Made by a program: the position numbers and the translations under genes
Notes under the pieces: generated by a model
What the model was told of the DNA's origin: nothing
Database searches by the model: none
The model's input: the letters and a program-made list of their open reading frames with translations, nothing else
NCBI GenBank assembly: GCA_039740895.1
Contig: JBCLGS010000002.1
Coordinates: forward strand, 258-64,257
DNA from: Parcubacteria group bacterium
GTDB taxonomy: Bacteria; Patescibacteriota; Minisyncoccia; Phycocordibacterales; DATDWN01
DNA: 64,000 nt
Direction of reading: 5' to 3'
Part shown: one piece after another, positions 4,772 through 55,157 of the stretch
Position numbering within the stretch: the first letter of the stretch is position 1
Layout: each line of letters begins with the position of its first letter

Positions 4772-4799
4772 ATCCGCTTTATGCGGGTTTTCGTTTTAT
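4772..4799. terminator. rho-independent terminator-like hairpin (ATCCGC..GCGGGT + T-run), bidirectional
   Basis: aaaatccgctttatgcgggttttcgtttta immediately 3-prime of the minus-strand 129-aa gene stop (4796). Confidence 0.45.
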
Positions 4800-5185
4800 T
4801 GAGGGAAAAATTCCAAAACTCCTCTGATTATAGATTTAAAATCATCATTTGAGATTGTTCCAACCTTTCTTACAAATCTCTTCGTACTAACAGTTCTAAT
4901 CTGGGTCAAAACAACAAAATATTCATTTTTATCGAAAATAAATTTATAATGAAACTTGTCACTTTTCATCTTAGAAGTTATAGGTAAAACCCAAGTCATT
5001 TGTTTGTTAAACTTTCTCAAGACTAAAGCTGTTCTCTCATATTGATTATTTTTACCATCAATCTCAATTCCGATATTTAACCCGAGTGACATCCACCAAA
5101 TTTCTCTTTCATTAACTCCCAAATTATCAGATTTTTTATCTATTATTTTCTTTAACTTATTCCAACTATCAAAATCTTTTTCCAT
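4796..5185 (-). CDS. MazF/PemK-family mRNA interferase-like toxin
   Basis: 129 aa; EREIWWMSLGLNIGIEIDGKNNQYERTALVL...VLPITS...FVVLTQIRTVSTKRFVRKVGTISNDDFKSIIRGVL follows the MazF/PemK pattern (RGDIW.V.L.P..G.E..G.RP.LV.S......V.P.T......Q.R..D..R); lies 15 bp downstream of lexA in the same operon. Confidence 0.5.
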   Translation of the reverse strand: MEKDFDSWNKLKKIIDKKSDNLGVNEREIWWMSLGLNIGIEIDGKNNQYERTALVLRKFNKQMTWVLPITSKMKSDKFHYKFIFDKNEYFVVLTQIRTVSTKRFVRKVGTISNDDFKSIIRGVLEFFPQ

Positions 5186-6361: not shown

Positions 6362-8038
6362 TTATGATTCAAGAAAAAGTCTAGCCAGTCGTATTTTCAA
6401 ATAACTTGGTTTCTTTTTTTGTTTCTGCAAAATATTATAAACTGGTGACAAAGTTTTTGTTCCTGCTTTTTCAAATGCTGACAAAATATCATCTAGCTCT
6501 GAACGCTTAAACTCACGACGAAGATATGCGAAGTCTGGACACTTGTCTTTTTCATCTTCTAGGATTTTTTCAATATGAGAAACAATTGTTTCTTGTTTCA
6601 ATCCCCTAACTTCAGCGAGTTTCTCAAGTGGCACTTCCAGCCTAAGCATATCTGCTGTAATCTGCTCTGTTGTTTTCTTCAAAAGTTTTTCTTTCTTTTT
6701 TATTTTAACTTTTTCTTCTGGCTCTATTGATTTCAAATATTTTTCTTGTTTTTCACGAAGCTCTGTTTTTAGTATTTCTTTTAATTTTTCCACGGCCTCT
6801 TGTGACATTTTCTGAAACTCTTTGTCATATTCCAAAACCTCTCCGTCCACTTGAAGTGACATATCATTAAACCCCAAAAGTTTCATTCCGTTCAGAGAAC
6901 GAACACGAGATAAAGCCACATATCCCATTCCTTTTACAAACGACTTGGACAAATCCACCTCCATAGCGTCCAGTGACATTCCTTGACTCTTGTGCACGGT
7001 AATAGCCCAGGCTAAGCGAAGCGGAAACTGCGTAATCTCAGCCTTCACTTTTCCATCTTCTTCTATCTGCCATGACTCATGTCTCGCATATATAGTCTTG
7101 CCATTTGTGGTGACTATGACGGGGTCACCGTATGCATTAAAACTATCTACTACTCCGAGCGTTCCGTTCACATATTCACCTTCTTTATCATTTTTGGTAA
7201 ACATCACGCGTGCTCCGATTTTTAAAACTAATTTCTCAGGTGACAAGCAACTTTTTTTCAGTGCTTCAATAATAAAACTTGAACCTCGTGAGGTCATCTC
7301 AAATTGATTTATATCCCCAGGAATTAAATCTAAGTGTCTGCGGTTAATGACATCCACATCTATATTGTGAGTGTGAAGCTTTGTCGGCTTTGCCCCGGAC
7401 TCCGGCTCTTTATTAAATCTAGTTTTTAAAAGTTCAATGGTTTCCTTCGTAACTTTATTCTCGCGAATCTGATTTAATATCGTGAGATATATGTCATCTT
7501 TCTGACGATGTTGTTCGGACAAATGACAAATAGTGAGCTTTGAGTTCTGCCATGAGTCTGCTTTGAAAGCAAATTCACTCTCTGAAATATCGCCTCGCGT
7601 AACAGGTGGGAGTTGAAAAAAATCCCCAGAAAGAATAACTTGCATTCCACCAAAAGGTTTTTCATTTCGTTTGAACTGTCTGCAAATCCATTCAATGAGG
7701 TCCAGTCGGTAATGGTGAAGCATTGAAACTTCGTCAATTATCAAAACTTTTGTTTTTTCAAAACGCTTGTAGAGATACTGTTTCTCCATCATATTTTCAA
7801 TATCATAATCCGTCAGAACATCTCTGATACCGAGCCCAGACCATGAGTGAATAGTCTGACCACCAAGGTGCGTTGCGGCAATACCAGTGGACGCTGTTAC
7901 GGCTACATCCACAGCATTTGATTTCAGATATTTTATATACTCATTTAAGACATGAGTTTTTCCGCTCCCAGCAGGTCCTGTAAGAAAAACATTTTTACCC
8001 AGTTTTAATATATCGAGTGCTTCGCTTTGTAACATCAC
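6362..8038 (-). CDS. Pif1/RecD-family ATP-dependent DNA helicase with C-terminal HTH-like domain
   Basis: 558 aa; Walker A TGPAGSGKTH, DEVSM Walker B, GGMQVILSGDFFQLPPV, and a C-terminal HKSQGMSLD motif typical of AAA_30/UvrD_C_2 (Pif1-like) helicases. Confidence 0.8.
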   Translation of the reverse strand: MMLQSEALDILKLGKNVFLTGPAGSGKTHVLNEYIKYLKSNAVDVAVTASTGIAATHLGGQTIHSWSGLGIRDVLTDYDIENMMEKQYLYKRFEKTKVLIIDEVSMLHHYRLDLIEWICRQFKRNEKPFGGMQVILSGDFFQLPPVTRGDISESEFAFKADSWQNSKLTICHLSEQHRQKDDIYLTILNQIRENKVTKETIELLKTRFNKEPESGAKPTKLHTHNIDVDVINRRHLDLIPGDINQFEMTSRGSSFIIEALKKSCLSPEKLVLKIGARVMFTKNDKEGEYVNGTLGVVDSFNAYGDPVIVTTNGKTIYARHESWQIEEDGKVKAEITQFPLRLAWAITVHKSQGMSLDAMEVDLSKSFVKGMGYVALSRVRSLNGMKLLGFNDMSLQVDGEVLEYDKEFQKMSQEAVEKLKEILKTELREKQEKYLKSIEPEEKVKIKKKEKLLKKTTEQITADMLRLEVPLEKLAEVRGLKQETIVSHIEKILEDEKDKCPDFAYLRREFKRSELDDILSAFEKAGTKTLSPVYNILQKQKKKPSYLKIRLARLFLES

Positions 8039-8219: not shown

Positions 8220-9446
8220 TTATACAAGCGGATATTCTCCTTCAAGAAGTTTGTTCGTCACTTCACGCAATTTACTAAGTTTTTCTTTTACAATTTTTTG
8301 TACTATCTTTATATCAATAGATTTTACAGAATTTATGACGACAAATGCTGGATCATCAAGGGGACGATCAATTTCGCTTATCATAAAAACTTCACATGGA
8401 ACTTTTTGCTGTTCAAATATTTGTTGCGCGATATCCCAGGCTGCAACGGAATAAATCTTACCGGCATGATACGATGGATTTTTTCCACTTAATCCTTCAA
8501 TACTGAATGGTCTGCATGAAGAAATAACTCCGCCCAATCTATTCCCTCTGCTAACTTGTCCCTCGTCACCAGATTCAATGCATGATCCAGTGAAGCGGAG
8601 GTACAACATTTCCTTATCGGTGTTATCTCCCGGATTGAGGGTAACTAAGACATTTTTAAATTGAGACCCATCGATTATCTTGTTGATAATGGTGAGAGTT
8701 ACATTGTAATTTTCTTTATATTCAAAAATAGAATGTACATGTGTCGAAAGCTGCGGGATTGAGATGATTAAATTAATCTCTTCTTTTATGCGACAAGCCA
8801 TTATTTTACAATCGGATCCCATCCATGGATATTTCACCCACATATCATCGGAAGTTAAGGTTTTTTCAATATCAAGTACAAGTTTTTCAAGTGGAGTAAA
8901 CGGTGCCCACGCACAACCTACTGCAGTATCATTTGATATCGGATTTGATGACTCCGGCAAATCTTTCAAACTCCGAGGATGAAATCTATGGTGTATTGCC
9001 GAAGTACCACCATTTGCACCATCTATCATTCCACGTGTACTATTTGATGTATTTTCCCACATCACCCGACAATCAGTCAGAAAATTGAAATTTCTTAATT
9101 CCTTTTCTAAAAACTTAGTGGCAGTATTGATAAGCAAATCTCGAAAGTCAATATTTTCATCTCCAATTTTTGGAGTGGCTCTGCCGTTAATGAGAAGTCG
9201 AATCGGTGATCTGAAATTGCCTCCTCCAAATCTTATGTCGCATTTTCCACCCATAAGCGAGAGTTTATCAAACTGATGTCGCAATATTGCTCCATATTTG
9301 TCGCGAGTGAATTTACTGTATGTACGAGAAAAAAGTTCAGCTAACCGATCAGAAAGCGTATCAGGATGTCCACGACCTTTCCGCTCCACAATTTCAAAAT
9401 CATTATCTGCTGGATTTTTTATGTTATAAGTTATATTTACTTTCAT
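8220..9446 (-). CDS. mat: archaeal-type S-adenosylmethionine synthetase (methionine adenosyltransferase)
   Basis: 408 aa; N-terminal ERKGRGHPDTLSDRLAE matches the archaeal MAT signature (ERKGxGHPD); this class is known in CPR genomes. Confidence 0.8.
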   Translation of the reverse strand: MKVNITYNIKNPADNDFEIVERKGRGHPDTLSDRLAELFSRTYSKFTRDKYGAILRHQFDKLSLMGGKCDIRFGGGNFRSPIRLLINGRATPKIGDENIDFRDLLINTATKFLEKELRNFNFLTDCRVMWENTSNSTRGMIDGANGGTSAIHHRFHPRSLKDLPESSNPISNDTAVGCAWAPFTPLEKLVLDIEKTLTSDDMWVKYPWMGSDCKIMACRIKEEINLIISIPQLSTHVHSIFEYKENYNVTLTIINKIIDGSQFKNVLVTLNPGDNTDKEMLYLRFTGSCIESGDEGQVSRGNRLGGVISSCRPFSIEGLSGKNPSYHAGKIYSVAAWDIAQQIFEQQKVPCEVFMISEIDRPLDDPAFVVINSVKSIDIKIVQKIVKEKLSKLREVTNKLLEGEYPLV

Positions 9447-11659: not shown

Positions 11660-12103
11660 CTAGTCAACTAAAATTGACTTAAAAAAATCCCCAGAAAGAA
11701 TAACTTGCATTCCACCAAAAGGTTTTTCATTTCGTTTGAACTGTCTGCAAATCCATTCAATGAGGTCCAGTCGGTAATGGTGAAGCATTGAAACTTCGTC
11801 AATTATCAAAACTTTTGTTTTTTCAAAACGCTTGTAGAGATACTGTTTCTCCATCATATTTTCAATATCATAATCCGTCAGAACATCTCTGATACCGAGC
11901 CCAGACCATGAGTGAATAGTCTGACCACCAAGGTGCGTTGCGGCAATACCAGTGGACGCTGTTACGGCTACATCCACAGCATTTGATTTCAGATATTTTA
12001 TATACTCATTTAAGACATGAGTTTTTCCGCTCCCAGCAGGTCCTGTAAGAAAAACATTTTTACCCAGTTTTAATATATCGAGTGCTTCGCTTTGTAACAT
12101 CAC
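11660..12103 (-). pseudogene. truncated duplicate of the Pif1-like helicase 5-prime end (first 142 codons, then frame runs into a stop)
   Basis: Lies within direct-repeat copy 2 (11681-12134); identical N-terminal 142 aa to the full-length gene; lacks the rest of the helicase. Confidence 0.8.
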
Positions 12104-14282: not shown

Positions 14283-14573
14283 TTAAAGTTTATAAGCATC
14301 TTTTCTATGCTTAACTCGTAAAACTATGAGAATATTTATAGAACCTTTATCATTTATTTCAAACAAAACTCGATAATCTCCTATTCTATATCTACATATA
14401 TTAGTAAACACACCAGAAAGTTGCTTAGCTCGAATGAGAGGATTTTTTAGTTCGCTGTTCTCTTTTATTTTTGCAACAATTCGAAGAGCTATTTTTTTAT
14501 CAATCTTTTTTAAATCGGAAAGCGCGTGCTCTGTATATTTAAGATTAAATATCCCAATCATATTAACTTGCAT
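14283..14573 (-). CDS. RelE/ParE-family type II toxin
   Basis: 96 aa; RIGDYRVLFEI...ILIVLRVKHRKDAYK pattern; start codon 1 nt after the upstream antitoxin stop. Confidence 0.6.
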   Translation of the reverse strand: MQVNMIGIFNLKYTEHALSDLKKIDKKIALRIVAKIKENSELKNPLIRAKQLSGVFTNICRYRIGDYRVLFEINDKGSINILIVLRVKHRKDAYKL

Positions 14574-14863: not shown

Positions 14864-15553
14864 TTACTTTTTCTCTTTCCAAGCTTCAATCTTCTTATGG
14901 TCGCCAGACAAAAGTACTTTTGGCACACGATATTTTTTACCTTTATATTCAAAAACTTCTGGTCTTGTATAAACATTATGAGAGGAGGCGCGTGACTCTT
15001 CTAGAGAATTAAAATTGCCGAGGACTCCTTCTATCTGGCGAGCCATGCAGTCTATAACAATCATCGCTGGCAATTCTCCGCCAGTTAGCACAAATGGACC
15101 GACAGAAATATTTTCGGTTTTAAAAATTTTTTGAACACGAGCATCAATACCTTCATACCTGCCGGAGATTAAAATAATGTCGGTGAATTTATGCACAGTC
15201 TTTTTTGCGTATTCAGTATCAAATTGTTTTCCACCAGGAGAGAACCATATAATCTTTACTCTCTTTGTGTCAAAAGATACCTTTGACACTTTTGAATTTG
15301 TAACTTTTTTTCTTTTTTCAATAATTTTCAGAGCCGCTTCTATTGCTTTGACCACAGGCAATGCCTGAATGACCATACCCGGACCTCCGCTATATGGCTT
15401 TTGGTCAATGTGTCTGAATTTGTTGTCAGAAAAATCTCGAGGATTATAAAATTTAACCTTGATTTTCTTATCCTCTATGGCTCGCGACATAATAGACTCG
15501 CCTAGGTACGAGTCAAATGCTACCGGAAACAGTGTTACTATATGAAATATCAT
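14864..15553 (-). CDS. trmD: tRNA (guanine37-N1)-methyltransferase
   Basis: 229 aa; SPOUT-knot blocks (ISGRYEGIDARV, GPFVLTGGELPAMIVIDC); classic position downstream of rpsP and the KH protein. Confidence 0.9.
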   Translation of the reverse strand: MIFHIVTLFPVAFDSYLGESIMSRAIEDKKIKVKFYNPRDFSDNKFRHIDQKPYSGGPGMVIQALPVVKAIEAALKIIEKRKKVTNSKVSKVSFDTKRVKIIWFSPGGKQFDTEYAKKTVHKFTDIILISGRYEGIDARVQKIFKTENISVGPFVLTGGELPAMIVIDCMARQIEGVLGNFNSLEESRASSHNVYTRPEVFEYKGKKYRVPKVLLSGDHKKIEAWKEKK

Positions 15554-16293: not shown

Positions 16294-16803
16294 TTACGCA
16301 ATAGTTTCCTCCACAGATGGAGCAACGACTGGGACATCTTGAGCTGGAGTGACTGGCGCCTCAGGATTACCTGATGCGTAAGTGGCCTCAAGAGTACTTG
16401 ATGCATAAGTGGCCTCAAGAGTACTTGATGCATAAGTGTCCACTTCGTTTCCCTTATCCACTTCGTTTCCCTTATCCGCTTCGCTTTCCTTAGCTGGAGC
16501 AGTTACAACAGGAACTTCTTTTACAATGGCATTTTTCAAAGGAAGAACATTGACTTTCTTTCCTTCTATAATTTTCCTACTAACCAAAAGATTATGAACG
16601 GTGCCTGAAGTTTGTGCTCCTTGTAACATCCAATAATTTATTCTCTCTGCATTGAAGACAGCTTTCTCTCCGCTTCTTGAATCATAGTTACCCAAAATCT
16701 CAAGTGATTTACCACTTTTTGTAGAGTTCTTTGAATCAGTTAGAACAAGTCTAAAAACTGGTTCGTGTTTTCGTCCTACTCTTTGTAATCGTATTTTTAA
16801 CAT
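16294..16803 (-). CDS. rpsP: 30S ribosomal protein S16 with ~80-aa repetitive C-terminal extension
   Basis: Start at internal Met MLKIRLQRVGRKHEPVFRLVLTD (canonical S16 N-terminus); the tracked ORF runs further upstream antisense to rnr, which is probably not translated. C-terminus carries tandem DKGNEV x2 and TYASSTLEA x2 repeats. Confidence 0.85.
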   Translation of the reverse strand: MLKIRLQRVGRKHEPVFRLVLTDSKNSTKSGKSLEILGNYDSRSGEKAVFNAERINYWMLQGAQTSGTVHNLLVSRKIIEGKKVNVLPLKNAIVKEVPVVTAPAKESEADKGNEVDKGNEVDTYASSTLEATYASSTLEATYASGNPEAPVTPAQDVPVVAPSVEETIA

Positions 16804-20179: not shown

Positions 20180-22522
20180 CTACTTCGCTACGGAAACTGC
20201 TTGGTCAAAAGCGACAGAGAGAAGTTTTGAGCCGCCACCCATTCCCATTGTCACGCCGTATAAAATACCAGCGCGGGACATTGTTTCGCGGTTGTGAGTG
20301 ATAACAATAAGCTGAGAAAACTTGGAAAGATTTTCCACCATATCGGCATATTTTTTGGAATTGGCTTCGTCCAGTGCCGCATCTGTTTCGTCCAAAATAA
20401 TAAATGGCGGAGGATTGACTTGGGTCACGGCGAAAATTAAAGCGATGGATGTCAAAGCTCTTTCACCACCAGAAAGCATCATCAATCCCTTCACTTTCTT
20501 TTTTGGCAAACTAACTTCAATATCAATTCCCTCTTCGCTCAACAAAGCTTCTTCATACGCTTGTTCGCCATCGTCCAATAAACCACTTATGTCGTCGTCC
20601 TTTCCGCCAAAGGCGGATCCGTCCGATGAGGCGGACTTTTTTTTCTTTGGTGGATTTATTACAGACAAGTGTGCCTCTCCTCCTCCGAACATCATCGCAA
20701 AATATTCTTTGAATTGTACATTGATTTTCTCCACACCATTTTTAAATTCAGTTGAAAGTCTTTCGTCTAAATCTTTTATAAGCTCTGTCAGTGACACAGC
20801 CGATTGTTCCAAATCAATAATTTCCTTTGCAAGAAATTCATCTCTCTCAGTAGCATCTGTGTATTCTTTCATTGTTTCGGAACCGCCAATACCTCCAGCG
20901 TCTTCCAATCGGATTTTTATTTTCTCAATAGCCCGCCTGCGTTCTTCCTGGATATTACGTGGCTCATCATAATTAAAAGGAATACTTTCTCCGCCAAAGG
21001 CGGATCCGTCCGATGAGGCGGAAAATTGCAAAATACTCGTACCAAGCATCATCCCAAGCTCTGTAAGTTCCCGCTTGAAATCTTCTTTGATTAACCTAAG
21101 TGTTTCTTCTTCGGCAGAAACAGTATGAAGTTTTGACCGAGCTTCCTGTCCTCCCGCCATAATTCTGAAAATGTCTTTTTCTGCATCACGATTTGAATCT
21201 TTTTCTTTTTCTATTTTATTTTTCAGTGAATTATACTGCGTTGCAAGTTCTGTCTCACGAGATTTCATTCCATTTATTTTTGAATCAATTTCACCCTTTG
21301 AACTCTTCAGATTTTCAATATCCCTCTCCGCCTCAGCAAGAAGTGACACCTGCCCGACTACATTCAGGCGGGTGTCCACTCGGTCTTTATTATCATCAAC
21401 AAAATCTTGTAGGGCTCTACTTATTTCATCAATGACTCGCAAGAGTGTCTCAGTGTCTCTGGTCTCTCTAGCTTGAACTATTTTTTCCTCCAAACTTTTT
21501 TGCAAAGCTTCCACTGAAACTAGAGTAACTGTCTTGTGTAAATAAGATGAGGTGACTTCTTCTTGTTTTCGGACCATTCGTGCGAGGGAAGAAAGTTCAC
21601 CGTCAATTCTTCCAAACTCTTTGAAGAGCGAATCTTTTTCTTCGCGGATATCATGCAAAGATTTTTCAAGAATCATCAGTTCGTCACTGACCAAGTCTTT
21701 GTGCGTAACATTTTCTAAAACAGACCGAGCTTTCGTCAATTCTTCTTCAAGTTTTTTTATTTCTTTTTCCAGTGGTTCTTTTTCACTAGATATTTTTTCT
21801 GATTTACTTTTTATATATTGGCCTTCGCGATTGCAGTATTCCATTGCCCTCTGCTTTAAATCCTCTTTCATCTCTAATGTCTTCTGGACTTTCTCTACTT
21901 GTTTTCTCAAAAATTTAATATGAGGCATTATTTCGCGACGGAGCGATTCTACCTGAGCAATATTCTCCCGAGTTTTTTCTAACTTTCTCTGACTCTCATG
22001 TTTTTTATATTGATATAGTTTCAAGCCAAGTGCATCCTCTATCATTGCCTTACGCTCTTTGATACTAGCGTTCAAAATTCTATCCGCTTCACCTTGAGAA
22101 ATAATATGATGTCCAGAAGCTCCAATATGTGCTGAGTTCAAAAGCTCCACTACATCTCGAAGTCGCACATGGGAACCATTTATTAAATATTCATTTACAG
22201 AATCTCGATGGACCACTCGCTCTATAACAACCTCCTCAAAATCAACCGGTAAAAATCGTGAGGTATTGTCTAAGACAAGCTTAACGCTTGCCCGATTCGC
22301 CCGGGGTGAATCACCAGTGCCGTTGAATATCAAATCCTCACCCTTTTTTCCTCGAAGAGACTTGATAGACTGTTCGCCGAGCACAAATCGAAAGGCCTCA
22401 GCCACATTGGACTTGCCTGAGCCGTTTGGACCTACGATAGCAGAAATAGGAGATGAAAATGTCAGCTCGCTTTTCTTAGCAAATGATTTAAAACCAGTAA
22501 GCTCGATACTTTTCAGATACAT
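20180..22522 (-). CDS. smc: SMC-family chromosome segregation ATPase (short form)
   Basis: N-terminal Walker A GPNGSGKSN, long coiled coil, C-terminal signature LSGGERALTSIAL and Walker B ILDETDAALD; contains two in-frame 35-bp palindromic inserts. Confidence 0.85.
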   Translation of the reverse strand: MYLKSIELTGFKSFAKKSELTFSSPISAIVGPNGSGKSNVAEAFRFVLGEQSIKSLRGKKGEDLIFNGTGDSPRANRASVKLVLDNTSRFLPVDFEEVVIERVVHRDSVNEYLINGSHVRLRDVVELLNSAHIGASGHHIISQGEADRILNASIKERKAMIEDALGLKLYQYKKHESQRKLEKTRENIAQVESLRREIMPHIKFLRKQVEKVQKTLEMKEDLKQRAMEYCNREGQYIKSKSEKISSEKEPLEKEIKKLEEELTKARSVLENVTHKDLVSDELMILEKSLHDIREEKDSLFKEFGRIDGELSSLARMVRKQEEVTSSYLHKTVTLVSVEALQKSLEEKIVQARETRDTETLLRVIDEISRALQDFVDDNKDRVDTRLNVVGQVSLLAEAERDIENLKSSKGEIDSKINGMKSRETELATQYNSLKNKIEKEKDSNRDAEKDIFRIMAGGQEARSKLHTVSAEEETLRLIKEDFKRELTELGMMLGTSILQFSASSDGSAFGGESIPFNYDEPRNIQEERRRAIEKIKIRLEDAGGIGGSETMKEYTDATERDEFLAKEIIDLEQSAVSLTELIKDLDERLSTEFKNGVEKINVQFKEYFAMMFGGGEAHLSVINPPKKKKSASSDGSAFGGKDDDISGLLDDGEQAYEEALLSEEGIDIEVSLPKKKVKGLMMLSGGERALTSIALIFAVTQVNPPPFIILDETDAALDEANSKKYADMVENLSKFSQLIVITHNRETMSRAGILYGVTMGMGGGSKLLSVAFDQAVSVAK
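20601..20635. repeat. GC-rich palindromic element inserted in-frame in smc (copy 1; encodes SASSDGSAFGG)
   Basis: TTCCGCCAAAGGCGGATCCGTCCGATGAGGCGGA contains the TCCGCC-AAA-GGCGGA hairpin; identical copy at 20988-21022. Confidence 0.8.
20988..21022. repeat. GC-rich palindromic element inserted in-frame in smc (copy 2)
   Basis: 35/35 match to copy 1, 387 bp away, same frame. Confidence 0.8.
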
Positions 22523-22882: not shown

Positions 22883-23578
22883 TTAATTCCAGCCCCGAAC
22901 TTCAAGTGCCAATCGGGCCGCCACCTGTTCCGCATCTTGCTTTGAATCGCCTACACCTTCAGCAACCAAATTTCTGCCAATATAAACACCAACGGTGAAT
23001 TTCTTGTCATGGTCTGGACCAGTTTCTTTGATCGTTTTGTATGATGGAGTAACACCATCAAACTCTTGAGCTTTTTCCTGAAACAATGATTTTGAATCAA
23101 TAAAACTTTTTGCAGAAATAATATCATCAATAAGTGGAGTGAAATTTCTTTCGATAAAACCCTTGGCAGAATCATATCCTTGGTCAAGATAAATTGCTCC
23201 GATAAGTGCCTCTAAGACATTGGCTAAAATATATTGTCTAGCTCGTCCTATGTCCTTACTCTCACCTTTTGAAAGAAGTAGATAATCGTTTATAGAAAGT
23301 CTGGTGGCAATCTCTGAACATGTAGTAGCATTCACGAGCGAAGAACGATAAGCGGTCAACTCTCCTTCCGGCTTAGTTGGGTATTTTGCGTATAGGAAGT
23401 CTGTGATAACAAGCTCCAAAACAGCGTCGCCTAAAAACTCTAATCTCTCATTATGAGAAAGTCCTGATGCTTTGTTTTCGTTGATATATGAGCGGTGTAC
23501 AAAAGCTTGCGTCAAAAGACCAACATCTTTGAATGCTAGCCCCGCTTTCATTTGAAATTCTGTAAAATCTATAATCAT
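22883..23578 (-). CDS. rnc: ribonuclease III
   Basis: RNase III signature ERLEFLGDAVLELVITDFLY and C-terminal dsRBD; start taken at MIIDFTEF (the ORF extends to 23623). Confidence 0.9.
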   Translation of the reverse strand: MIIDFTEFQMKAGLAFKDVGLLTQAFVHRSYINENKASGLSHNERLEFLGDAVLELVITDFLYAKYPTKPEGELTAYRSSLVNATTCSEIATRLSINDYLLLSKGESKDIGRARQYILANVLEALIGAIYLDQGYDSAKGFIERNFTPLIDDIISAKSFIDSKSLFQEKAQEFDGVTPSYKTIKETGPDHDKKFTVGVYIGRNLVAEGVGDSKQDAEQVAARLALEVRGWN

Positions 23579-23651
23579 GTTTGTAATATAACACAAAACC
23601 AGCTTATTGCAAAAAACCCTCAATTCTTTGCCGAGCTCTGTGGATTTTTGA

Positions 23652-23726
23652 CCAAGGTCGCGTATAAAATTTAAAAATGTGCGAAGCCATACTTAGTAGT
23701 ATGGTGACAAACATTTTTAAATTTTA
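23652..23726 (+). repeat. family B structured repeat, copy 2
   Basis: Perfect 14-bp outer stem AAATTTAAAAATGT / ACATTTTTAAATTT enclosing the conserved GCCATACTTAGTAGTATGG inner hairpin; preceded by ccaaggtcg. Confidence 0.8.
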
Positions 23727-25213: not shown

Positions 25214-25852
25214 TTATTTTATGCAATTCTTACAAAAAGACTTTCTGTGGAGTTTTGACAAACCAAATTTCTTTATAGCTTCTCTGTGTTTTTTCGTTCC
25301 ATAACCTTTGTGTTCATGGAAACCATACTCTGGAAATTTTTTGTGGGATTTGACCATAATAGCGTCGCGAGAAACTTTTGCCAAAATACTTGCCCAAGCA
25401 ATAATCTGCTCCTTTTCATCACCTTTAATTATTGTTTTCTGATTTACAAATTCCTTCGGAGCTTTTAGCCCTCCATCAAGAAGAATCTGATAACTATCCA
25501 AGGACCGCTCTTGGATAACTTTTTTTATACCTTTCTCAATCGCATATTTAATAGCAAATGAAAGACCTTTTTTATCAATTATTGTATTTGAAATATGTAC
25601 AATCTGAATCTGCAGATGGTCCCCATCTGCAGATTCTGCAGATGGGGACCATCTGCAGATTTCATTTAAATAGTTTGAATACTTTTGACGGGATTCGAGA
25701 GAGAGTTTTTTGCTGTCTTTTCCCAGTGGTGGTAGGCGTTTGTCTTTCTTTAGTTTGGTATAAAACTTTGACTGACAAACAACCACACAGACTGAAACTG
25801 GACCCGCCAGTGGCCCTCTCCCAACTTCATCTATTCCGACAATATATTTCAT
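25214..25852 (-). CDS. rnhB: ribonuclease HII, carrying an in-frame palindromic insertion
   Basis: N-terminal GIDEVGRGPLAGPV RNase HII motif; two adjacent copies of CTGCAGATGG(TCC/GGGA)CCATCTGCAG at 25610-25659 encode SAESADGDHLQIQ inside the protein. Confidence 0.85.
   Translation of the reverse strand: MKYIVGIDEVGRGPLAGPVSVCVVVCQSKFYTKLKKDKRLPPLGKDSKKLSLESRQKYSNYLNEICRWSPSAESADGDHLQIQIVHISNTIIDKKGLSFAIKYAIEKGIKKVIQERSLDSYQILLDGGLKAPKEFVNQKTIIKGDEKEQIIAWASILAKVSRDAIMVKSHKKFPEYGFHEHKGYGTKKHREAIKKFGLSKLHRKSFCKNCIK
25610..25659. repeat. two abutting 23-bp perfect palindromes CTGCAGATGGTCCCCATCTGCAG inserted in-frame within rnhB; a third copy at 55335-55357 inside another gene
   Basis: Exact palindrome; the same 23-mer recurs within the CDS 55158..55556, in both cases encoding SADGDHLQ. 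Confidence 0.85.
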
Positions 25853-26896: not shown

Positions 26897-29800
26897 ATGA
26901 CATCCAAATTTACTCACCTACATACGCACTCACACTATTCCCTACTCAATGCTCTACCGAAAATTCCAGAGTTGGTAAAAACAGCCAAGAAAATGGGTAT
27001 GACTTCTCTTGCTTTGACTGACAATTGCAACTTATACGGAGCGATTGAATTCTATAAAGAATGTCGGAAACATGAAATCAAACCAATCATCGGTATTGAT
27101 GCCTATGTCGCCTATCGCTCACGGCACGACAAACAAGGTATCGACAAGGAGAGATATCGACTTGTGCTACTTGCAGAAAATGAAACCGGTTATAGGAATT
27201 TAATAAAACTGGTGACAGAGGCGCATCTAGAGGGTTTTTATTACAAGTCTCGTGTGGACAAAGAAATTTTGGAAAAATACCACGAAGGTCTTATCGCTAT
27301 AATTCCATCTTTTTCAAATGATATTTTACAATCATTAAGCACTTCACATGAGGAACAAGCTCTTGAAAGACTAAATTGGTATAAAAAAACTTTTGGAGAA
27401 AATAATTTTTTCATTGAAGTGACTCATCATCCTGAAATGAAAGGTCATACGGAAAAAATGGCTTTGATGATTGATTTTGCAAAAAGAACAAAAACTCAGG
27501 TAGTGGCAGCACATGATGTGTATTATCTTCTTCCAGAAGACAGGCTGGCTCGTGAGACACTAATGGCTGTGCAATCAAACGGTGATATTTCAGAAAAAAT
27601 TAATTCTGGAGATATTGATGATTTTTCTTTCATCTCCCCAGAACTAGCGAAAAAATATTTCAAAGATTTACCAGAGGCATTGGAGAACACGGAAAAAATC
27701 GCTGAGAGATGTAATTTCACACTAAAACTTGGTAGTTGGGTTTTTCCAAACTTCATTGTAGAAAGTGGTCTATCATACGACGATGAGCTTCGTAGGATGA
27801 CACTTCTGGGCATTGAAAAGCGTGGTCTCGAAAAAACGGATGAAGTGACGAAGCGTATGGAATATGAACTTAAGGTTATTAAAGATAAGGGTTACTCACC
27901 TTACTTTCTCGTGGTGTCTGACCTCCTAAAATTTGCTGATGAAAATGGAATCTTCACAAACATTCGAGGGTCTGTCGCAGGCTCCCTTGTCACCTACCTC
28001 TGTGGAATTACAAAAGTTAATCCTCTTGTTTACAAACTTCCGTTCGAGCGATTCCTAAATCCCGAAAGACCTTCTGCTCCCGATATCGACATGGATTACG
28101 CCGACAACCGTCGTGATGAAGTGATTGAATATGCCAGACGAAAATATGGAAATGATAAAGTGGCTCAAATAGGAACATTCGGCACCATGGCCGCTCGTGG
28201 CTCTGTCCGTGATGTGACGCGTGCAATGGGTCTTCCATACGGTACAGGAGACAATATCGCCAAATTAATACCTATGGGCGCTCAGGGTTTTCCCATGACT
28301 ATTGAGCGTGCAGTCAAAGAAGTTCCAGAACTAAAAGAGCTGTATAAAAAAGATGCCGATGTCAAAAAAATTATTGATATGGCAAAAAAAATTGAAGGTT
28401 CTGCTCGCCATATTTCTGTACACGCCGCTGGTGTGGTTATTTCCCCCACACCACTTACTGACTTCATTGCACTGCAATACGACACGAAAGGAGACAACAA
28501 AATTATTACTCAGTACGATATGTATGCTGTAGAGGACGCAGGTCTTTTAAAGTTTGACTTCCTTGGTATTAGAAACCTTTCCATTCTGGCTGATGCAGTA
28601 CATAGAGTTGAAAAAATTGAAGGAATTAAAATGGATATTGAAGCCATACCGCTAGACGACAAAAAAACTTTTGCCATGCTTGCTCGAGGAGAAACTATTG
28701 GTCTTTTTCAGCTCAACGGTGATGGTATGACACGATGGCTCAAAGAACTCAGACCCACGACAATTTTTGATATTAACGCCATGGTCGCACTTTATCGCCC
28801 TGGTCCAATGGAATGTATTCCTCAGTATATTGAGAGAAAACACAATCCAAAGCTCATCAAATTTCTTGATCCGAGAATGAAAAATATTTTGGACCAATCT
28901 TTTGGAGTTATTACCTACCAAGACGATGTTATGCTTATTGCTATTGAGCTAGGTGGGTATTCTTGGCTTGAAGCTGATAAGCTCCGAAAAGCCATGGGAA
29001 AGAAAATCCCAGCCGTGATGCAAGCTGAAAAAGAAAAGCTTCTGGCTGGTCTTATTAAGAACGGAATGACAGAAGCAAAGGCAAATGAGCTCTGGAAACT
29101 GATTGAGCCTTTTGCTGCGTACGGATTCAACAAAGCTCACGCCGCCAGCTATGGCAGAGTGTCGTATCAGACTTCGTACATGAAAGCCAACTTCCCTGCT
29201 ATATATATGTCTGCAGTACTTACGGCTGAGTCAGGCGATATAGAAAAAATCGCCGAAATAATCAACGAGTGTAAGCGTATGAATATTCCAGTTCTTCCTC
29301 CAGATATAAATCAATCATTCAGTGGATTTTCTGTTGTTAAGGGAAGTCAGATGAGCGAAGCGAAAACTGACGGACACTTAGGCACGATGTACTCATCGGA
29401 CAGTAACCACAAAAATTCTGCAGAAGAGATCCTTCTGCAAAAAAATTCAACTGAAAAAAAAGATTCCATCCGCTTCGGGCTTACTACTATCAAAAACTTT
29501 GGTGAAGGTATCGGGCAATCCATAATTACAGAAAGAAAAACAAATGGTGAATTCAAATCACTGTCAGATTTTTTACGAAGAATAAAAGATAAAAATTTAA
29601 ATAAAAAATCTCTTGAGTCACTTATCAAAGTTGGAGCGATGGATGCTTTTAGAGACAGAGCCACGCTCTTATTTAATTTGGAAAAATTACTTCAATTCAA
29701 CAAAGAGGAACGAAACAAAGAAAATGCTCAAGACTCACTTTTCGGATTACTCCCAACACACGACAGTAGTGAAGACATACATTTGGAAAAAGCTCCGGAA

Positions 29801-30754: not shown

Positions 30755-32512
30755 ATGGAACAAACACAAATTCAACAAAATAGACACTCGCTCGCCCATT
30801 TATTAGCGGCTGCCATTTTAAAAATTTGGCCAGATGCATTACCCACTCTTGGACCTGCTATAGACACAGGTTTTTACTATGACTTTGATTTTAAGACCCC
30901 AATCTCGGATAAGGATTTTGAAAAGATAGAAAACAAGATGCGAGAAATTGCAAAAAAATGGAAAGGTTTTGAGAAAAAAGAAATTTCTATAGACGAAGCT
31001 AGAAAACTTTTTGCTGGAAATCCGTACAAACTAGAGCTCATTGAGGAAATTAATAAGAAAAAAGAATCAATCACTCTATACACATCCGGAACTGGCGACA
31101 CAGAATCCACTGACCTTTGTCGTGGAGGTCACACCGATGACATGGCAAGGACGGTCCTTGCCATGGGGTGGAAACTCGAACGAGTTGCTGGTGCATACTG
31201 GCGAGGTGACGAGAAAAACAAAATGCTCACTCGTGTTTATGGATTGGCTTTTGAGTCAAAAGAAAAATTAGAAGAATATATAAAACTTCGAGAAGAAGCG
31301 GAAAAACGAGATCATAAAAAAATAGGAAAAGAAATGGGTCTTTTCACTGTTTCGGATTTGGTCGGCAAAGGATTACCAATGTATCTTCCAAAAGGAAATA
31401 TAATCAGAACTGAATTGGAAAAAATGATCCGATATGAAAAAGAAAAACTTGGATATTCGTTTGTTACGATTCCACATATTGCTAGAAAAGAGTTGTACAT
31501 CCGTAGCGGTCATATGGGTAAATATGATGCAATGATGCCAACTATGACAGACGAAAATGGTGATGAGTTTGTAATGAAAGCTATGAATTGTCCTCACCAC
31601 TTTGAGATATACAATGCTGAGCAACATACATACAAGGACTTACCTCTTCGACTTGCCGAAAATACAACAGTATATCGAAACGAAAAAAGTGGTGAACTTT
31701 CTGGACTTTTGCGGGTAAAAAATCTTACACAAGATGACACTCACCATTTTATAAGACAAGACCAAATTCAATCAGAAATAAAAATGATTATTGGTCTAAT
31801 GCAAAAAGTTTATAGTATGTTTGGTTTTAATGATTACAAAGTTAAAATTTCAATCCGGGATCCAAAAAATAAAGAAAAATATTTTGGCAGTGATGAAGTC
31901 TGGGAAAAAGCTGAAGGAATTTTGATTGATGAAGTAAAAAAATGGGGTGTGAAATATAGTGTTGAAGAAGGTGAAGCCGCATTTTATGGTCCTAAAATTG
32001 ATATTGGGGTGAAAGACTCAATTGGTCGTGATTGGCAGTTAACGACTATCCAACTTGATTTCAACCAACCAGAAAACTTTGAAATGGACTATATCGGTGA
32101 TGATGGAAAAAAACATCGAGTGGTTGTTCTACATGTTGCCATCTTTGGATCATTTGAAAGATTTATGGGAATTATTATTGAACACTATGCCGGAAACTTC
32201 CCTGTTTGGCTTGCACCAGTACAAGTCAAAGTCATTCCTGTCAGAACAAGTCACAATGAATATGCTAAAAAGGTTTATGAGACACTTCGCGCAAATGACA
32301 TTCGCGCAGAGTTTGATGATGATGATGAAAACCTGGGTAAAAAAGTCCATGCTACAAAAAATGATAGAACTCCGTATTGGATTGTACTAGGTGATAAAGA
32401 GGTTGAGGCAAACACTGTCACACTCGAATCCCGTGACTCCGGTCAGCTCGGCCAGATGACGGTTAATGAACTTGTCGCAAAACTCACCACAGAGATTAAA
32501 GACAGAAAATAA
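30755..32512 (+). CDS. thrS: threonyl-tRNA synthetase (lacking N-terminal TGS domain)
   Basis: 585 aa; second additional domain HSLAHLLAAAI, class II core motifs and C-terminal anticodon-binding domain. Confidence 0.93.
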   Translation: MEQTQIQQNRHSLAHLLAAAILKIWPDALPTLGPAIDTGFYYDFDFKTPISDKDFEKIENKMREIAKKWKGFEKKEISIDEARKLFAGNPYKLELIEEINKKKESITLYTSGTGDTESTDLCRGGHTDDMARTVLAMGWKLERVAGAYWRGDEKNKMLTRVYGLAFESKEKLEEYIKLREEAEKRDHKKIGKEMGLFTVSDLVGKGLPMYLPKGNIIRTELEKMIRYEKEKLGYSFVTIPHIARKELYIRSGHMGKYDAMMPTMTDENGDEFVMKAMNCPHHFEIYNAEQHTYKDLPLRLAENTTVYRNEKSGELSGLLRVKNLTQDDTHHFIRQDQIQSEIKMIIGLMQKVYSMFGFNDYKVKISIRDPKNKEKYFGSDEVWEKAEGILIDEVKKWGVKYSVEEGEAAFYGPKIDIGVKDSIGRDWQLTTIQLDFNQPENFEMDYIGDDGKKHRVVVLHVAIFGSFERFMGIIIEHYAGNFPVWLAPVQVKVIPVRTSHNEYAKKVYETLRANDIRAEFDDDDENLGKKVHATKNDRTPYWIVLGDKEVEANTVTLESRDSGQLGQMTVNELVAKLTTEIKDRK

Positions 32513-32962: not shown

Positions 32963-35077
32963 TTATATATCCAATGTAGCGATTTTGGCGTTGGATTGTA
33001 TGAAGGATTTTCTGGCTGGCACATCAGAGCCCATCAGAATACCAAATACCTTGTCGGCAGCCACAGTACTATCAACTTTGACTTGAAGCAGAATTCGTCT
33101 AGCGGGATCCATTGTTGTTTCCCAAAGTTCTTCGGCGTTCATTTCTCCGAGACCTTTGTAGCGTTGTATGTTTACTTTTTGGTTTTTCGGTTTGTCACCT
33201 TTCTGCGAAGGACTAACCTTCGCAGAATCATCATCTTCATTGTTTAATTCTTCATCTACATTCTCTAGAGTATCTGATATATCAATGTTCATTACACTTC
33301 CATTATCCTTTTTGAAAGTTTCCATTTCTCCCTCAGTATAGACATAATGAATTTCCTTACCAATTTTTATTTTGAAAAGTGGGGGTTGAGCTATGTAAAC
33401 AAATCCGCCATCAATAAGTGGTCGGAAAAATCTATACAACAAAGTCAAAATAAGTGTACGAATATGAGCACCGTCCACATCGGCATCTGTTGCTATGATT
33501 ATTTTGTGATATCGAAGTTTTTCAATATTGAATGTGTCGCCAATCGCAGTGCCGAGTGCAAGAACCAAGTTTTTGATTTGTTCTGATTCAAGCATTCTAT
33601 CAAGTCGTGCTCTCTCAATGTTTAAAATCTTTCCTCGAAGCGGCAAAATGGCCTGAGTCTTTCGGTCGCGACCAGCTTTCGCTGTACCACCGGCAGAATC
33701 TCCCTCCACAATGAAGAGTTCTGAATCTGATGGTGAATTTGATTGACAGTCAGCTAGCTTTCCTGGAAGAGTCATTCCTTCGAGTGCCCCCTTGCGAAAT
33801 ACAGAGTCCTTAGCAGCTTTTGCTGCCTTGCGGGCTTTGAGTGCAAGCACCACCTTTCCTATGATGGCTCTGGCGTCTTCTGGGTTTTCTTCTAGAAAGT
33901 AATTAAAAGCCTCAGAAAAAACAGCATTAACTGATGCCTGTGCCTCCACAGTTCCGAGCTTAGCCTTTGTCTGGCCTTCAAATTGAATCTCTTGAAGCTT
34001 TATGGAAATTACCGCAGTCAAACCTTCGAGTACATCATCTCCAGTGAAGTTGTCATCACTTTCTTTAATCAAATTATTTTTTCGTCCATAAGCATTTAGC
34101 GTGCGAGTCAGAGCTGTTTTGAAACCAGTGACATGTGTTCCTCCTTCTGAGTTGTAAATGTTGTTTGCAAAAGGCAGTATACGAGATGAAATATCATCCA
34201 CATATTGTAGAGAAACTTCCACGGACTCCCATTCATTTGTTTTCTTTTCAATATAGAAAACATTTTTGTGAATTGGTTTGAAATCGTGATTGTAAAATTT
34301 CACAAGTGAGAGTAACCCCCCTTCAAAATAGAAAGACATACTTGGAATTTCTAAGCCGAGCTCAGCAAAAGAATCAGACAGTTTAAAAACATCGTCGTCT
34401 TTTATTTTTCCTGTATAAGCGCTAGCATCATTTATAGTAATATGTAAACCTTTAACTAAATATGCCTGCTGTCTTAAGTGGTCAATAACTTTATTGAAGT
34501 CAAAAATAATTTCAGGGAAGATTGCTTTGTCTGGTTCAAAAGTAACAATAGTACCTTTTAATTTTGTGTTTCCAATTTTCTTTACACTAGTTTTCTTTTT
34601 TCCTTGCGAATATTCTTGTACATAAATACCGCCATCTTTGTGAACGACAACCTTACAATAAATAGAAAGTGCATTCACCACTGATGCTCCCACTCCGTGT
34701 AAACCTCCGGAAACTTTGTAGCCACCCTCACCGCCAAATTTTCCTCCAGCGTGAAGTGTGGTCATAATAGTTTCAAGAGCAGAAACTTTTGTTTGTTTGT
34801 GTATATCAACTGGAATACCGCGACCGTTGTCTGTTACTCGAATACGATTACCAGGTAAAAGTGTTACCTCAATTTCATCAGCAAAACCACCCATGGCCTC
34901 ATCACGAGCGTTATCAAAAATTTCCCAAATAAGGTGATGCAGACCGTCTTGTCCCGTGGTACCAATGTACATTCCGGGTCGCTTTCTAACAGGCTCCAAA
35001 CCCTCCAGCACCTGGATCGCATCCGCTCCGTATCCGTCTCCATTCTTAACCTTCTTTTCTGCTTGTTTTTTAGCCAT
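32963..35077 (-). CDS. gyrB: DNA gyrase subunit B
   Basis: 704 aa; GHKL ATPase block, Toprim block and C-terminal GLGEMN motif; gyrA is not adjacent. Confidence 0.97.
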   Translation of the reverse strand: MAKKQAEKKVKNGDGYGADAIQVLEGLEPVRKRPGMYIGTTGQDGLHHLIWEIFDNARDEAMGGFADEIEVTLLPGNRIRVTDNGRGIPVDIHKQTKVSALETIMTTLHAGGKFGGEGGYKVSGGLHGVGASVVNALSIYCKVVVHKDGGIYVQEYSQGKKKTSVKKIGNTKLKGTIVTFEPDKAIFPEIIFDFNKVIDHLRQQAYLVKGLHITINDASAYTGKIKDDDVFKLSDSFAELGLEIPSMSFYFEGGLLSLVKFYNHDFKPIHKNVFYIEKKTNEWESVEVSLQYVDDISSRILPFANNIYNSEGGTHVTGFKTALTRTLNAYGRKNNLIKESDDNFTGDDVLEGLTAVISIKLQEIQFEGQTKAKLGTVEAQASVNAVFSEAFNYFLEENPEDARAIIGKVVLALKARKAAKAAKDSVFRKGALEGMTLPGKLADCQSNSPSDSELFIVEGDSAGGTAKAGRDRKTQAILPLRGKILNIERARLDRMLESEQIKNLVLALGTAIGDTFNIEKLRYHKIIIATDADVDGAHIRTLILTLLYRFFRPLIDGGFVYIAQPPLFKIKIGKEIHYVYTEGEMETFKKDNGSVMNIDISDTLENVDEELNNEDDDSAKVSPSQKGDKPKNQKVNIQRYKGLGEMNAEELWETTMDPARRILLQVKVDSTVAADKVFGILMGSDVPARKSFIQSNAKIATLDI

Positions 35078-38414: not shown

Positions 38415-38510
38415 CTAGGCGGAAAGTGAAAAATAATCCGAGCCTTACTTTTTGTAAGGTGAGGATAATTTTTTGCTTTCCAACGACGAAATGCGCCAGA
38501 TTTGGAAGTT
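38415..38510 (+). repeat. family B structured repeat, copy 3 (between convergent genes)
   Basis: gaaagtgaaaaataat-ccgaGCCTTACtttttGTAAGGtgagg-ataattttttgc ... ccaacgacgaaatgcgccagatttggaagtttt; the inner stem CCTTAC/GTAAGG covaries with CCATAC/GTATGG in the other copies. Confidence 0.75.
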
Positions 38511-49883: not shown

Positions 49884-49929
49884 CTGCTGTTTGTATTCAA
49901 TCGCTTTGCTCTTGAACAAACAGGGAGCC
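49884..49929 (-). repeat. family D hairpin element, inverted copy 2
   Basis: ctgctgtttgtattcaatcgctttgctcttgaacaaacagggagcc is the reverse complement of 22745-22790 with a compensatory stem change. Confidence 0.75.
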
Positions 49930-49977
49930 TTACCCGCCCGCCACGCAAGCCGAAGTGTGCGAGGCGTTGCGGGCGGG

Positions 49978-49999
49978 CCATTAGCAGATCCCGCAATAC
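49978..49999. repeat. 21-bp duplicate of the 5-prime end of tRNA-Gln (ccattagcagatcccgcaata), 155 bp beyond the intact tRNA
   Basis: Exact repeat of 49806-49826; the intervening segment holds a family D hairpin and a GC-rich inverted repeat (cccgcccgc...gcgggcggg). Confidence 0.8.
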
Positions 50000-52902: not shown

Positions 52903-53008
52903 GCCAAGGTCAAGGCGAAATGTGAAAAATAATTCGAGCCATACTTGTCGTATGGTGAGGATTATTTTTCACATTTCAACGCAGAGATTGGCCAAATTTG
53001 GAAGTTTC
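52903..53008 (+). repeat. family B structured repeat, copy 4
   Basis: ccaaggtcaaggc-GAAATGTGAAAAATAAT-tcgaGCCATACttgtcGTATGGtgagg-ATTATTTTTCACATTTC-aacgcagagattggccaaatttggaagtttcag; 17-bp perfect outer stem. Confidence 0.8.
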
Positions 53009-55150: not shown

Positions 55151-55157
55151 ACTGCTT

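Follow-up and report, generated by a model that had tools for sequence, protein, structure and literature searches.

Palindromic DNA that is translated as part of the genes it occupies is known from the Rickettsia palindromic elements (RPEs) of Ogata et al. (2000), which are about 100-150 bp long and encode a conserved peptide (PMC10969869). Here we describe a far smaller repeat in a 64-kb stretch of contig JBCLGS010000002.1 (GC 36.9%; hereafter the window) from a Paceibacteria/Zambryskibacteria-like member of the Patescibacteria. The repeat, E1, is a GC-rich hairpin of 23-25 nt that occurs twice in rnhB, the gene for RNase HII, and once in a second gene (gene 2) 30 kb away, and its copies in the two genes are identical although both sites appear to have held homologous hairpins since before the lineage split.

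Like the RPEs, the hairpins of this genome form several palindromic families that lie in frame at tolerated positions in unrelated housekeeping genes of a reduced AT-rich genome, are presumably translated and have no known transposase; insertion that leaves the gene undisrupted is seen in rnhB, gene 2, dnaE, gyrB, trmD and smc. An earlier note on this DNA called E1 RPE-like, and as an analogy ("selfish DNA in coding regions") the term is apt, but membership in the RPEs fails on size and taxon. The unit here is 23-25 nt (7-8 amino acids) and the largest composite 55 nt, whereas an RPE is about six times longer; the host belongs to the Patescibacteria rather than to the Alphaproteobacteria (Rickettsia), and a sequence relation is impossible at this size. 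Moreover, RPEs lose the identity of their repeats over time (PMC6649704) while the arms described here are perfect and co-vary.

Mitochondrial genomes offer further parallels. Yeast GC clusters, Allomyces double-hairpin elements and sponge RHEs are also GC-rich single or double hairpins of divergent families in AT-rich compact genomes; they lie mostly in spacers but also in protein and rRNA genes, are functionless as far as is known, and have been attributed to transposition or replication error (PMC2800124). The composite in rnhB is literally such a double hairpin. The mitochondrial elements are organellar, usually longer (about 30-80 nt) and mostly intergenic, whereas those described here are bacterial, have a modal length of 23-25 nt and in many cases lie in essential genes. 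The coding palindromes of Nematomorpha mitochondria are likewise perfect ("binary"), translated, and gained or lost between species with arm identity maintained, and template switching or repeat conversion and a parasitic character have been suggested for them (PMC6649704). They reach up to 284 bp, however, both of their arms code for conserved parts of proteins, and they do not form multicopy sequence families, while the hairpins here are short, occupy variable loops and recur across loci. The translational bypass elements (byps) of Magnusiomyces mitochondria (PMC6649704) were considered as a model and rejected: every coding hairpin examined is in frame and free of stops, and read-through would suffice.

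Among bacterial repeats, the repetitive extragenic palindromic (REP) sequences and bacterial interspersed mosaic elements (BIMEs) resemble E1 as multicopy, hairpin-forming units of 20-40 nt that occur in both orientations and sometimes as adjacent inverted pairs, but they are extragenic and imperfect, carry a GTAG or CGTC tag, number in the hundreds and are linked to REP-associated tyrosine transposases (RAYTs) (PMC3733652). All three copies of E1 and its diverged relatives E2 and E3 lie inside open reading frames (ORFs), and the hairpin families of the related stretch L007 occur in genes as well as in spacers. A search of the literature on palindromes, hairpins and repeats in Patescibacteria, Parcubacteria or the Candidate Phyla Radiation (CPR), outside of which many subscription papers lay, found no account of such elements; small perfect hairpins within genes of this lineage are apparently undescribed so far.

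Sequences Compared

Homologues of the host genes are found in Patescibacteria metagenome-assembled genomes (MAGs) labelled Paceibacterota, Zambryskibacteria or Parcubacteria. Comparison DNA was taken from around orthologues in independent assemblies (L003, L004, L007/L008 and L009-L014), and those with homologous hairpins come from JGI, ENA, Logan and NCBI. L007, a stretch of 20.6 kb, is identical base for base to L008, and the two are from different samples. Pfam scans covered 48 of the 71 window ORFs of at least 50 amino acids (44 of the 53 of at least 100), and six further large ORFs were identified via homologues or synteny. Rfam 15 gave two tRNAs only at gathering score in the window.

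E1 and Its Host Genes

The 23-mer CTGCAGATGGTCCCCATCTGCAG lies at 25610-25632 and 55335-55357 on the + strand, and its reverse complement CTGCAGATGGGGACCATCTGCAG (centre GGGGACC) at 25636-25658; the shuffled window holds 0 matches to CTGCAGATGGTCCCCATCTGCAG. The 23-mer had been taken for a perfect palindrome in the earlier note. It differs from its own reverse complement at three central positions and is instead a hairpin with 10-nt arms and the 3-nt loop TCC (10+3+10), which one more base per side extends to 11+3+11. E1 contains PstI sites and GGWCC, so that a connection with restriction sites or with the C5-methylase encoded nearby is conceivable, and its flanks are gaaT/Attc, gattT/Attt and gactT/Aagt. 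The host genes and the copies are as follows.

25214-25852, minus strand: rnhB, RNase HII, 212 amino acids (Pfam RNase_HII on homologues)
25609-25633: E1 copy a, in rnhB, TCTGCAGATGG-TCC-CCATCTGCAGA; minus-strand reading SADGDHLQ; DNA fold -11.2 kcal/mol, z = -6.8
25635-25659: E1 copy b, in rnhB, the reverse complement of copy a, + strand loop GGA; minus-strand reading CRWSPSA(E)
25607-25661: composite perfect palindrome of 55 nt (27+1+27) formed by copies a and b with AA/TT flanks; DNA fold -32.7 kcal/mol, z = -13
55158-55556, minus strand: gene 2, 132 amino acids; an N-terminal transmembrane helix is joined by a hypervariable linker, in which the element lies, to a conserved C-terminal domain that contains Cys
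55334-55358: E1 copy c, in gene 2, in the same orientation and frame relative to the gene as copy a, SADGDHLQ
55327-55365: perfect palindrome of 39 nt (18+3+18), E1 with seven paired flank bases, TTTGACT/AGTCAAA

All of the copies lie within intact minus-strand ORFs, and copies a and c share 25/25 bases, those of the unconstrained loop and of synonymous positions included. Both of the back-to-back rnhB copies that the earlier note reported are present, but the second is in opposite orientation to the first, 3 nt from it, and the pair makes up the composite palindrome. The copy in the second gene was found at the position given there. The peptide SADGDHLQ, said to be encoded each time, is read from copies a and c, whereas copy b reads CRWSPSA. 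Since copies of one sequence are read in different frames and even the unconstrained loop is identical, the repeated entity is DNA and not a peptide motif. The repeats are thus DNA-level elements with Watson-Crick stems, in both orientations and in differing frames, and the idea that such a palindromic repeat is tolerated in frame in unrelated genes stands, with intact ORFs in two reading frames.

These findings bear on the proposal that the loci hold independent local palindromes and share the 23-mer through an ancestral or protein-level motif, SADGxxLQ, with no transfer of DNA between them. Palindromes do form in place in this genome (thrS, below), the gene 2 orthologue in L014 encodes SADGGLLQ, and related peptides are encoded in dnaE (SAE..LLQK) and gyrB (SAK..SQK). 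A shared motif does not explain nucleotide identity over 25/25 bases, loop and synonymous positions included, in two non-homologous proteins at positions that are hypervariable in both families, and the CRWSPSA reading in rnhB places the constraint on the DNA rather than on the peptide. The frame difference and the nucleotide identity effectively refute this proposal, which we regard as very improbable.

In RNase HII the element encodes residues 65-81; the peptide across copies a and b is ...NEICRWSPSAESADGDHLQIQ..., in which the frame of copy b differs and gives (I)CRWSPSA(E). This position (site 1) is hypervariable in an alignment of 30 RNase HII orthologues, with no insert in P0012, P0013, P0018, P0021, P0025 and P0068 and 7-50 additional residues in the others. 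In the AlphaFold (AF2) model of the rnhB product (mean predicted local distance difference test score, pLDDT, 86) helix 52-67 ends within residues 65-81 and gives way to a low-confidence coil (pLDDT falls below 50 over residues 70-73) that leads to strand 81-87. Orthologues in L003 and L004 carry different perfect double hairpins at site 1, AAAAAGGG-TTC-CCCTTTT... and TTACAAGGG-CGC-CCCTTGTAA..., which repeat the architecture seen in the window (a hairpin followed by its reverse complement). A third, unrelated hairpin of rnhB occupies a second variable site.

25495-25517: hairpin of 23 nt in rnhB at variable site 2, TATCCAAGG-accgc-TCTTGGATA, peptide IQERSLD

This site-2 hairpin is orthologous to TATCCAAGG-tttac-CCTTGGATA (IQGLPLD) of L004, and the two represent a family, ATCCAAGG-n5-CCTTGGAT (IQGxPLD), that also appears at site 1 in P0009, P0010, P0015 and P0028, as judged from peptides only.

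In gene 2 the element reads TSADGDHLQK and sits in the hypervariable linker; the shortest orthologues have 122 amino acids. The 39-nt palindrome around it is TTTGACTTCTGCAGATGG-TCC-CCATCTGCAGAAGTCAAA, with an 18-bp stem. The label "Ada-like" that had been attached to the protein is not upheld, as its sole basis is a sub-threshold Pfam match to Ada_Zn_binding (E = 0.018, 15.5 bits against a cut-off of 23). Directly downstream of gene 2, at 55100-55152, lies a 17-bp GC-rich hairpin, CCTGTCGTCCATCCTCG...CGAGGATGGACGACAGG, followed by CTTTTATTT (RNA window fold -41 kcal/mol). It is probably the terminator of gene 2, although it is longer and far more GC-rich than a terminator needs to be.

Exact copies of E1 were found nowhere else in the genome, metagenome and viral collections scanned, among which the source genome was not included. 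Scans with the pattern CTGCAGATGGNNNCCATCTGCAG gave two matches in species-representative genomes (Ideonella and Janthinobacterium, in GC-rich context), two in JGI metagenome contigs (of 56% and 44% GC) and none in IMG/VR viral contigs; the four matches have other loops, lie in unrelated contigs and are due to chance. Two other hairpin families gave 73 and 18 matches in viral contig scans, in unrelated contigs of varied GC, which is chance level by estimate for 14-16 specified bases. The possibility that E1 is a DNA uptake sequence was rejected because single arms show no excess (13 occurrences of CTGCAG, with 8.2 expected). Seven of these 13 CTGCAG occurrences are inside elements, six in E1 and one in the dnaE hairpin E2.

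Age of the Hairpins

The earlier note had concluded that identical copies in unrelated genes mean recent mobility into both. In the nearest orthologues, however, homologous hairpins are already present at the same codons. The rnhB gene of L013 (65% amino acid identity) has ACTTGCAGAAG-ggaat-CTTCTGCAAGT and behind it a second copy, inverted and decayed, and the gene 2 orthologue of L014 (67% identity) has TCTGCAGATGG-cggt-CTTCTGCAAGA, in which the left arm is that of E1 and the right arm is of the L013 type. Both host sites must therefore have been occupied before the lineages split. Comparison of rnhB orthologues does confirm a hypervariable site that is empty in some of them, but the nearest is filled. 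The simple reading of a new insertion also fails on the lack of further exact copies in the three collections and on the near-identical peptide (SADGGLLQ) of the L014 orthologue, observations of the kind that the earlier note had named as refuting its claim. The 25/25 identity of the window copies is best read as the outcome of recent copying or homogenisation among copies already in place, not of a first insertion. Instead of recent mobility into these genes, we would speak of recent homogenisation or re-copying at sites that appear to have been occupied for long.

Resident hairpins change in a paired manner. Between L007 and L011, hairpin 2 of rnhB differs by an A>G change; the opposite arm shows the corresponding T>C, and a third, partial copy of the arm repeats the change. 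L007 and L012 differ by two compensatory pairs, and the dnaE hairpins of the window and L011 by one. Stems are purely Watson-Crick, with no G-U pairs, and arms are perfect over 27/27, 18/18, 12/12 and 11/11 bases. Judged from these comparisons, resident copies outlast speciation while their arms change together, and dispersed copies of a family are identical within a genome, unlike copies at the same site in related genomes.

Whether the hairpins are artefacts of assembly or amplification, such as chimeric fold-back reads or adaptor-like sequence in a MAG, has to be weighed because the window comes from a single MAG contig, the exact 23-mer is in no other assembly, and each host product occurs only once in the protein collection, from NCBI alone (P0001, P0121). 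Long ORFs nevertheless stay in frame through all copies, independent assemblies carry homologous hairpins at the same codons, and the identity of L007 and L008 over 20.6 kb in two samples covers their hairpins. An artefact is hardly credible.

The persistence and stability of the hairpins raise a further alternative, namely that they are functional structures under selection, either as RNA hairpins (mRNA stability, RNase III) or as DNA sites for a dimeric protein, replication or recombination. Different species retain homologous hairpins at one and the same site, the changes between them being compensatory, and their stability is extreme (RNA window fold -52.5 kcal/mol, DNA z-scores from -7 to -13). 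As RNA, the rnhB composite would form a duplex of 27 bp, which is long enough for RNase III, and the window encodes rnc (22883-23623); some L007 copies lie just downstream of genes. Yet the elements are patchy among orthologues, many of which have no insert, and one loop may be held by different unrelated sequences. Perfect "all or nothing" stems that lack G-U pairs are a signature of conversion and not of selection on the RNA, as was argued for the Nematomorpha (PMC6649704). At the element no Rfam 15 family reached its gathering score, and the sub-threshold matches were to generic miRNA-precursor hairpins. Nor are the hairpins intrinsic terminators: they lie in the middle of ORFs, no T-run follows the stem in sense orientation in rnhB or gene 2, and terminator-like calls were made only on the antisense (+) strand of rnhB, with none in gene 2. 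A selected function is, on balance, distinctly unlikely.

Hairpins Elsewhere in the Window and in Related Genomes

E1 is not alone. The window holds six GC-rich hairpins with at least 10 pairs, against 0-2 in shuffles, and the earlier note's suggestion that the genome has several families tolerated in coding regions is borne out by dnaE, gyrB, thrS, trmD, smc and the second rnhB site.

29416-29442: E2, a diverged relative of E1 in dnaE, TTCTGCAGAAG-agatc-CTTCTGCAaAA, peptide SAEEILLQK
33201-33227: E3, a diverged relative of E1 in the variable C-terminal linker of gyrB, TTCTGCGAAGG-actaa-CCTTCGCAGAA, peptide SAKVSPSQK
15267-15289: hairpin of 23 nt in a variable loop of trmD, of the family GTGTCAAAG...CTTTGACAC, peptide VSKVSFDT
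31141-31165: perfect palindrome of 25 nt in thrS, CATGGCAAGGAC-g-GTCCTTGCCATG, peptide MARTVLAM
20603-20635: hairpin-containing repeat of 33 nt in smc, copy 1, TCCGCCAAAGGCGGATCCGTCCGATGAGGCGGA, in frame, SASSDGSAFGG
20990-21022: copy 2 of the smc repeat, 100% identical to copy 1, in direct orientation and in frame

E1, E2 and E3 have the termini TTCTGC(A)GA...TC(T)GCAGAA in common, and dnaE of L011 has a homologue of E2 at the same site, TCTGCGGAAGC-ctt-GCTTCCGCA. The family of this trmD hairpin, GTGTCAARG-n5-CYTTGACAC, is also carried by rnhB in L007, L011 and L012; L007 has a further member in a spacer and L011 one in a different gene. The thrS palindrome lies inside a conserved stretch, between CRGGH and KLERVAGAYWRG, and changes the length by only one codon (+1) relative to the L012 orthologue, so it formed in place and was not inserted. 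In smc, L007 has only SAL-GE at site 1 and a different 25-nt hairpin at site 2, so that the hairpin families at site 2 differ between the window and L007. A dnaE position after WYKKTF is empty in the window and in L003, holds a 54-nt insert of two hairpins in L007 and another insert in L011.

In 137 kb of related Paceibacteria DNA there are 37 GC-rich perfect hairpins (stems of 9 or more, arm GC of 0.4 or higher), compared with 0-4 per shuffle in 20 shuffles. Their lengths have modes at 23 nt (10 cases) and 25 nt (6 cases), and 29/37 have odd loops. About a dozen 23-nt hairpins are packed into the 20.6 kb of L007, including one family with three copies, ACTTGGCGGT-ttc/gaa-ACCGCCAAGT, in dnaE and two spacers, another with two copies, ACTTGGACGC-nnn-GCGTCCAAGT, in dnaE and trmD, and single hairpins in rnhB, smc and rpsP. 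The ACTTGG...CCAAGT hairpins of L007 (8675-8723, 18645-18667, 19658-19680 and 20158-20180) have a C directly 5' on the + strand in 5/5 copies, whatever the orientation of the loop. This may hint at a target or end preference, in a sample too small to judge.

Throughout, the hairpins survive only where they are harmless, that is, in intergenic spacers and in length-variable surface loops or linkers, where they are stop-free and in frame and add 7-18 residues. Comparison of related sequences indicates that palindromes also arise in place and extend into their flanks, as in the 39 nt of gene 2 and the 55 nt of rnhB.

Two further observations concern these host genes. The dnaE gene of L012 (4205-8812, 1535 amino acids) has an intein with a LAGLIDADG domain and a perfect hairpin of 56 nt with a 24-bp stem (8250-8305). 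The 3' part of the S16/rpsP-like ORF of the window (16358-16492) consists of tandem repeats of 27 nt (three copies) and 18 nt (three copies) that encode a C-terminal extension of S16, ...DKGNEVDKGNEVDTYASSTLEATYASSTLEATYAS...; the rpsP hairpin of L007, of 23 nt, is in that extension.

Origin and Maintenance

Quasipalindrome template-switch mutagenesis (the Ripley/Lovett model) is experimentally established in bacteria. Bacterial template switching turns imperfect inverted repeats into perfect ones and has been called on to explain why perfect inverted repeats are conserved in Proteobacteria (PMC5941160), and it has been proposed for the perfect coding palindromes of Nematomorpha mitochondria as well (PMC6649704). 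The explanation that we favour, and to which we give about an even chance, is that E1 represents one family of tiny (23-25 nt) GC-rich hairpin repeats, neutral or selfish, in an AT-rich Patescibacteria genome and its relatives, and that template switching maintains it. During replication-associated switching (fold-back, or quasipalindrome correction) the nascent strand would copy the opposite arm, and copying of arms would erase mismatches, pass mutations from one arm to the other, extend the palindrome outward and create inverted duplications. Template switching between dispersed members, or short-patch gene conversion primed by arms of ~11 nt, could overwrite one resident hairpin with another, and such overwriting would account for the 25/25 bases that the two rnhB copies have in common with gene 2 despite ancestral occupancy. 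No host function would be necessary, and the elements would be neutral or selfish passengers.

The pattern supports the part of this account that concerns switching within hairpins well. The perfect arms, the paired differences between orthologues, the palindrome that formed in place, and the outward growth with inverted duplication are the expected products of template switching, the process itself being inferred from the pattern. Template switching is a mutational process, however, and not a family of elements; alone it leaves the identity of distant loci and the narrow size mode unexplained.

Several points weigh against our explanation. No copying event was seen, and near-identical strains gave no pair of empty and filled alleles; in clusters at 90% identity the differences in length are alternative starts, ends or fragments, and none is at a hairpin site except for an indel of five amino acids in the linker (P0274). 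Switching within a hairpin is established, but that one locus overwrites another 30 kb away, with ~11-25 nt of homology to work through, is something we infer. So short a homology does not exceed the minimum that RecA-dependent conversion usually needs. The source genome was viewed through 64 kb, which bears on the copy number of E1 and on the presence of a dedicated enzyme, and L013 and L014, which we assume to represent one related species, are short contigs from separate samples. The tight mode at 23-25 nt and the conserved termini of families are not predicted by undirected template switching and hint at an agent specific for size or sequence, and the repeated use of exact codon positions could reflect targeting rather than a filter of selection.

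The agent could be an enzyme encoded elsewhere, such as a Y1 HUH transposase of the hairpin-recognising IS200/IS605-RAYT type, which would cut and paste or copy the hairpins as non-autonomous mobile elements (REP-, PATE- or MITE-like, the last being miniature inverted-repeat transposable elements). Identical copies would then be recent transpositions, and recurrent sites would reflect a target preference, possibly for existing hairpins. Families whose termini are conserved and whose lengths cluster narrowly at 23-25 nt are in keeping with this, as are identical copies in unrelated genes and spacers, different families at identical codon positions in different species and the C directly 5' of all five ACTTGG-family copies in L007; moreover, REPs of 20-40 nt are mobilised by RAYTs (PMC3733652). 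No transposase, RAYT or HUH domain was found among the window ORFs scanned with Pfam, however, and the elements show neither target-site duplications nor, in the E1 flanks, a GTAG or CGTC tag. Direct repeats are absent from the flanks of all copies, those in gene 2 being inverted, and 23-25 nt compares with 50-500 bp for MITEs. The sites were already occupied in the ancestor, and transposition would leave formation in place, growth into flanks and compensatory changes unexplained. A dedicated hairpin-specific enzyme is a serious rival to ectopic template switching or short-patch conversion, which remains the favoured option, but mobile elements of the described kinds are an unlikely explanation.

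A bolder proposal, which we consider doubtful, is that the Paceibacteria, and perhaps the Patescibacteria, harbour an unrecognised class of minimal elements, perfect hairpins of ~23 nt in many families that are copied and overwritten between sites by specific machinery. The machinery could be a nuclease or transposase that recognises hairpins, or a peculiarity of the lineage such as missing hairpin nucleases or mismatch repair. If so, it would continuously remodel surface loops of essential proteins such as RNase HII, DnaE, GyrB, SMC, TrmD and S16. The hairpins would then rank as the smallest DNA elements known in bacteria to be mobile or self-maintaining, and protein loops in ultra-small genomes would have a new source of variation.

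If the pattern holds genome-wide, the streamlined and supposedly junk-free genomes of Patescibacteria would tolerate dozens of tiny palindromes in essential genes and would offer a natural system for the origin, perfection and spread of hairpins in which the template-switch model could be tested over evolutionary time. Marker proteins of CPR phylogeny would contain species-specific indels, mRNAs would contain perfect duplexes of 18-27 bp, and assemblers and gene callers might be confused by the hairpins. Selfish DNA in coding regions, described in Rickettsia and in mitochondria, would extend to a third reduced AT-rich group at a much smaller size.

Other Features of the Window

A nested hairpin of ~60 nt, ...GTGAAAAATAATCCGAGCCATACTTgtcGTATGGTGAGGATTATTTTTCAC..., is present in three intergenic copies, in the nusB-rnc spacer, beside a DEAD-box helicase gene and in the ftsX-ftsE spacer (23666-23725, 38421-38480 and 52916-52975). 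The copies have a mean column identity of 81% and differ by one compensatory pair, CCATAC/GTATGG in place of CCTTAC/GTAAGG. No Rfam family matches the motif at gathering score; it could represent a terminator or regulatory RNA peculiar to the lineage. In the spacer upstream of the CTP synthase gene, amid AT-rich sequence, there is also an imperfect GC-rich hairpin, GCCCGCCCGC... (49921-49980).

The ORF at 46981-48558 (+ strand) fuses a LexA DNA-binding domain and an S24 peptidase to a complete C-5 cytosine DNA methyltransferase (Pfam E = 5e-17, 5e-29 and 3e-95), and such a union of an SOS-type repressor with a methylase is unusual. The convergent neighbouring ORF (48564-49655, minus strand, 363 amino acids) has no Pfam match and could encode a restriction enzyme. 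A PIF1-like helicase gene of 558 amino acids (6362-8038) is followed 3.6 kb away by an ORF of 147 amino acids (11660-12103) that matches its N-terminal part only and looks like a truncated duplicate. Toxin genes of the PemK/MazF type (4796-5185) and the ParE type (14283-14573) lie near these PIF1-like ORFs.

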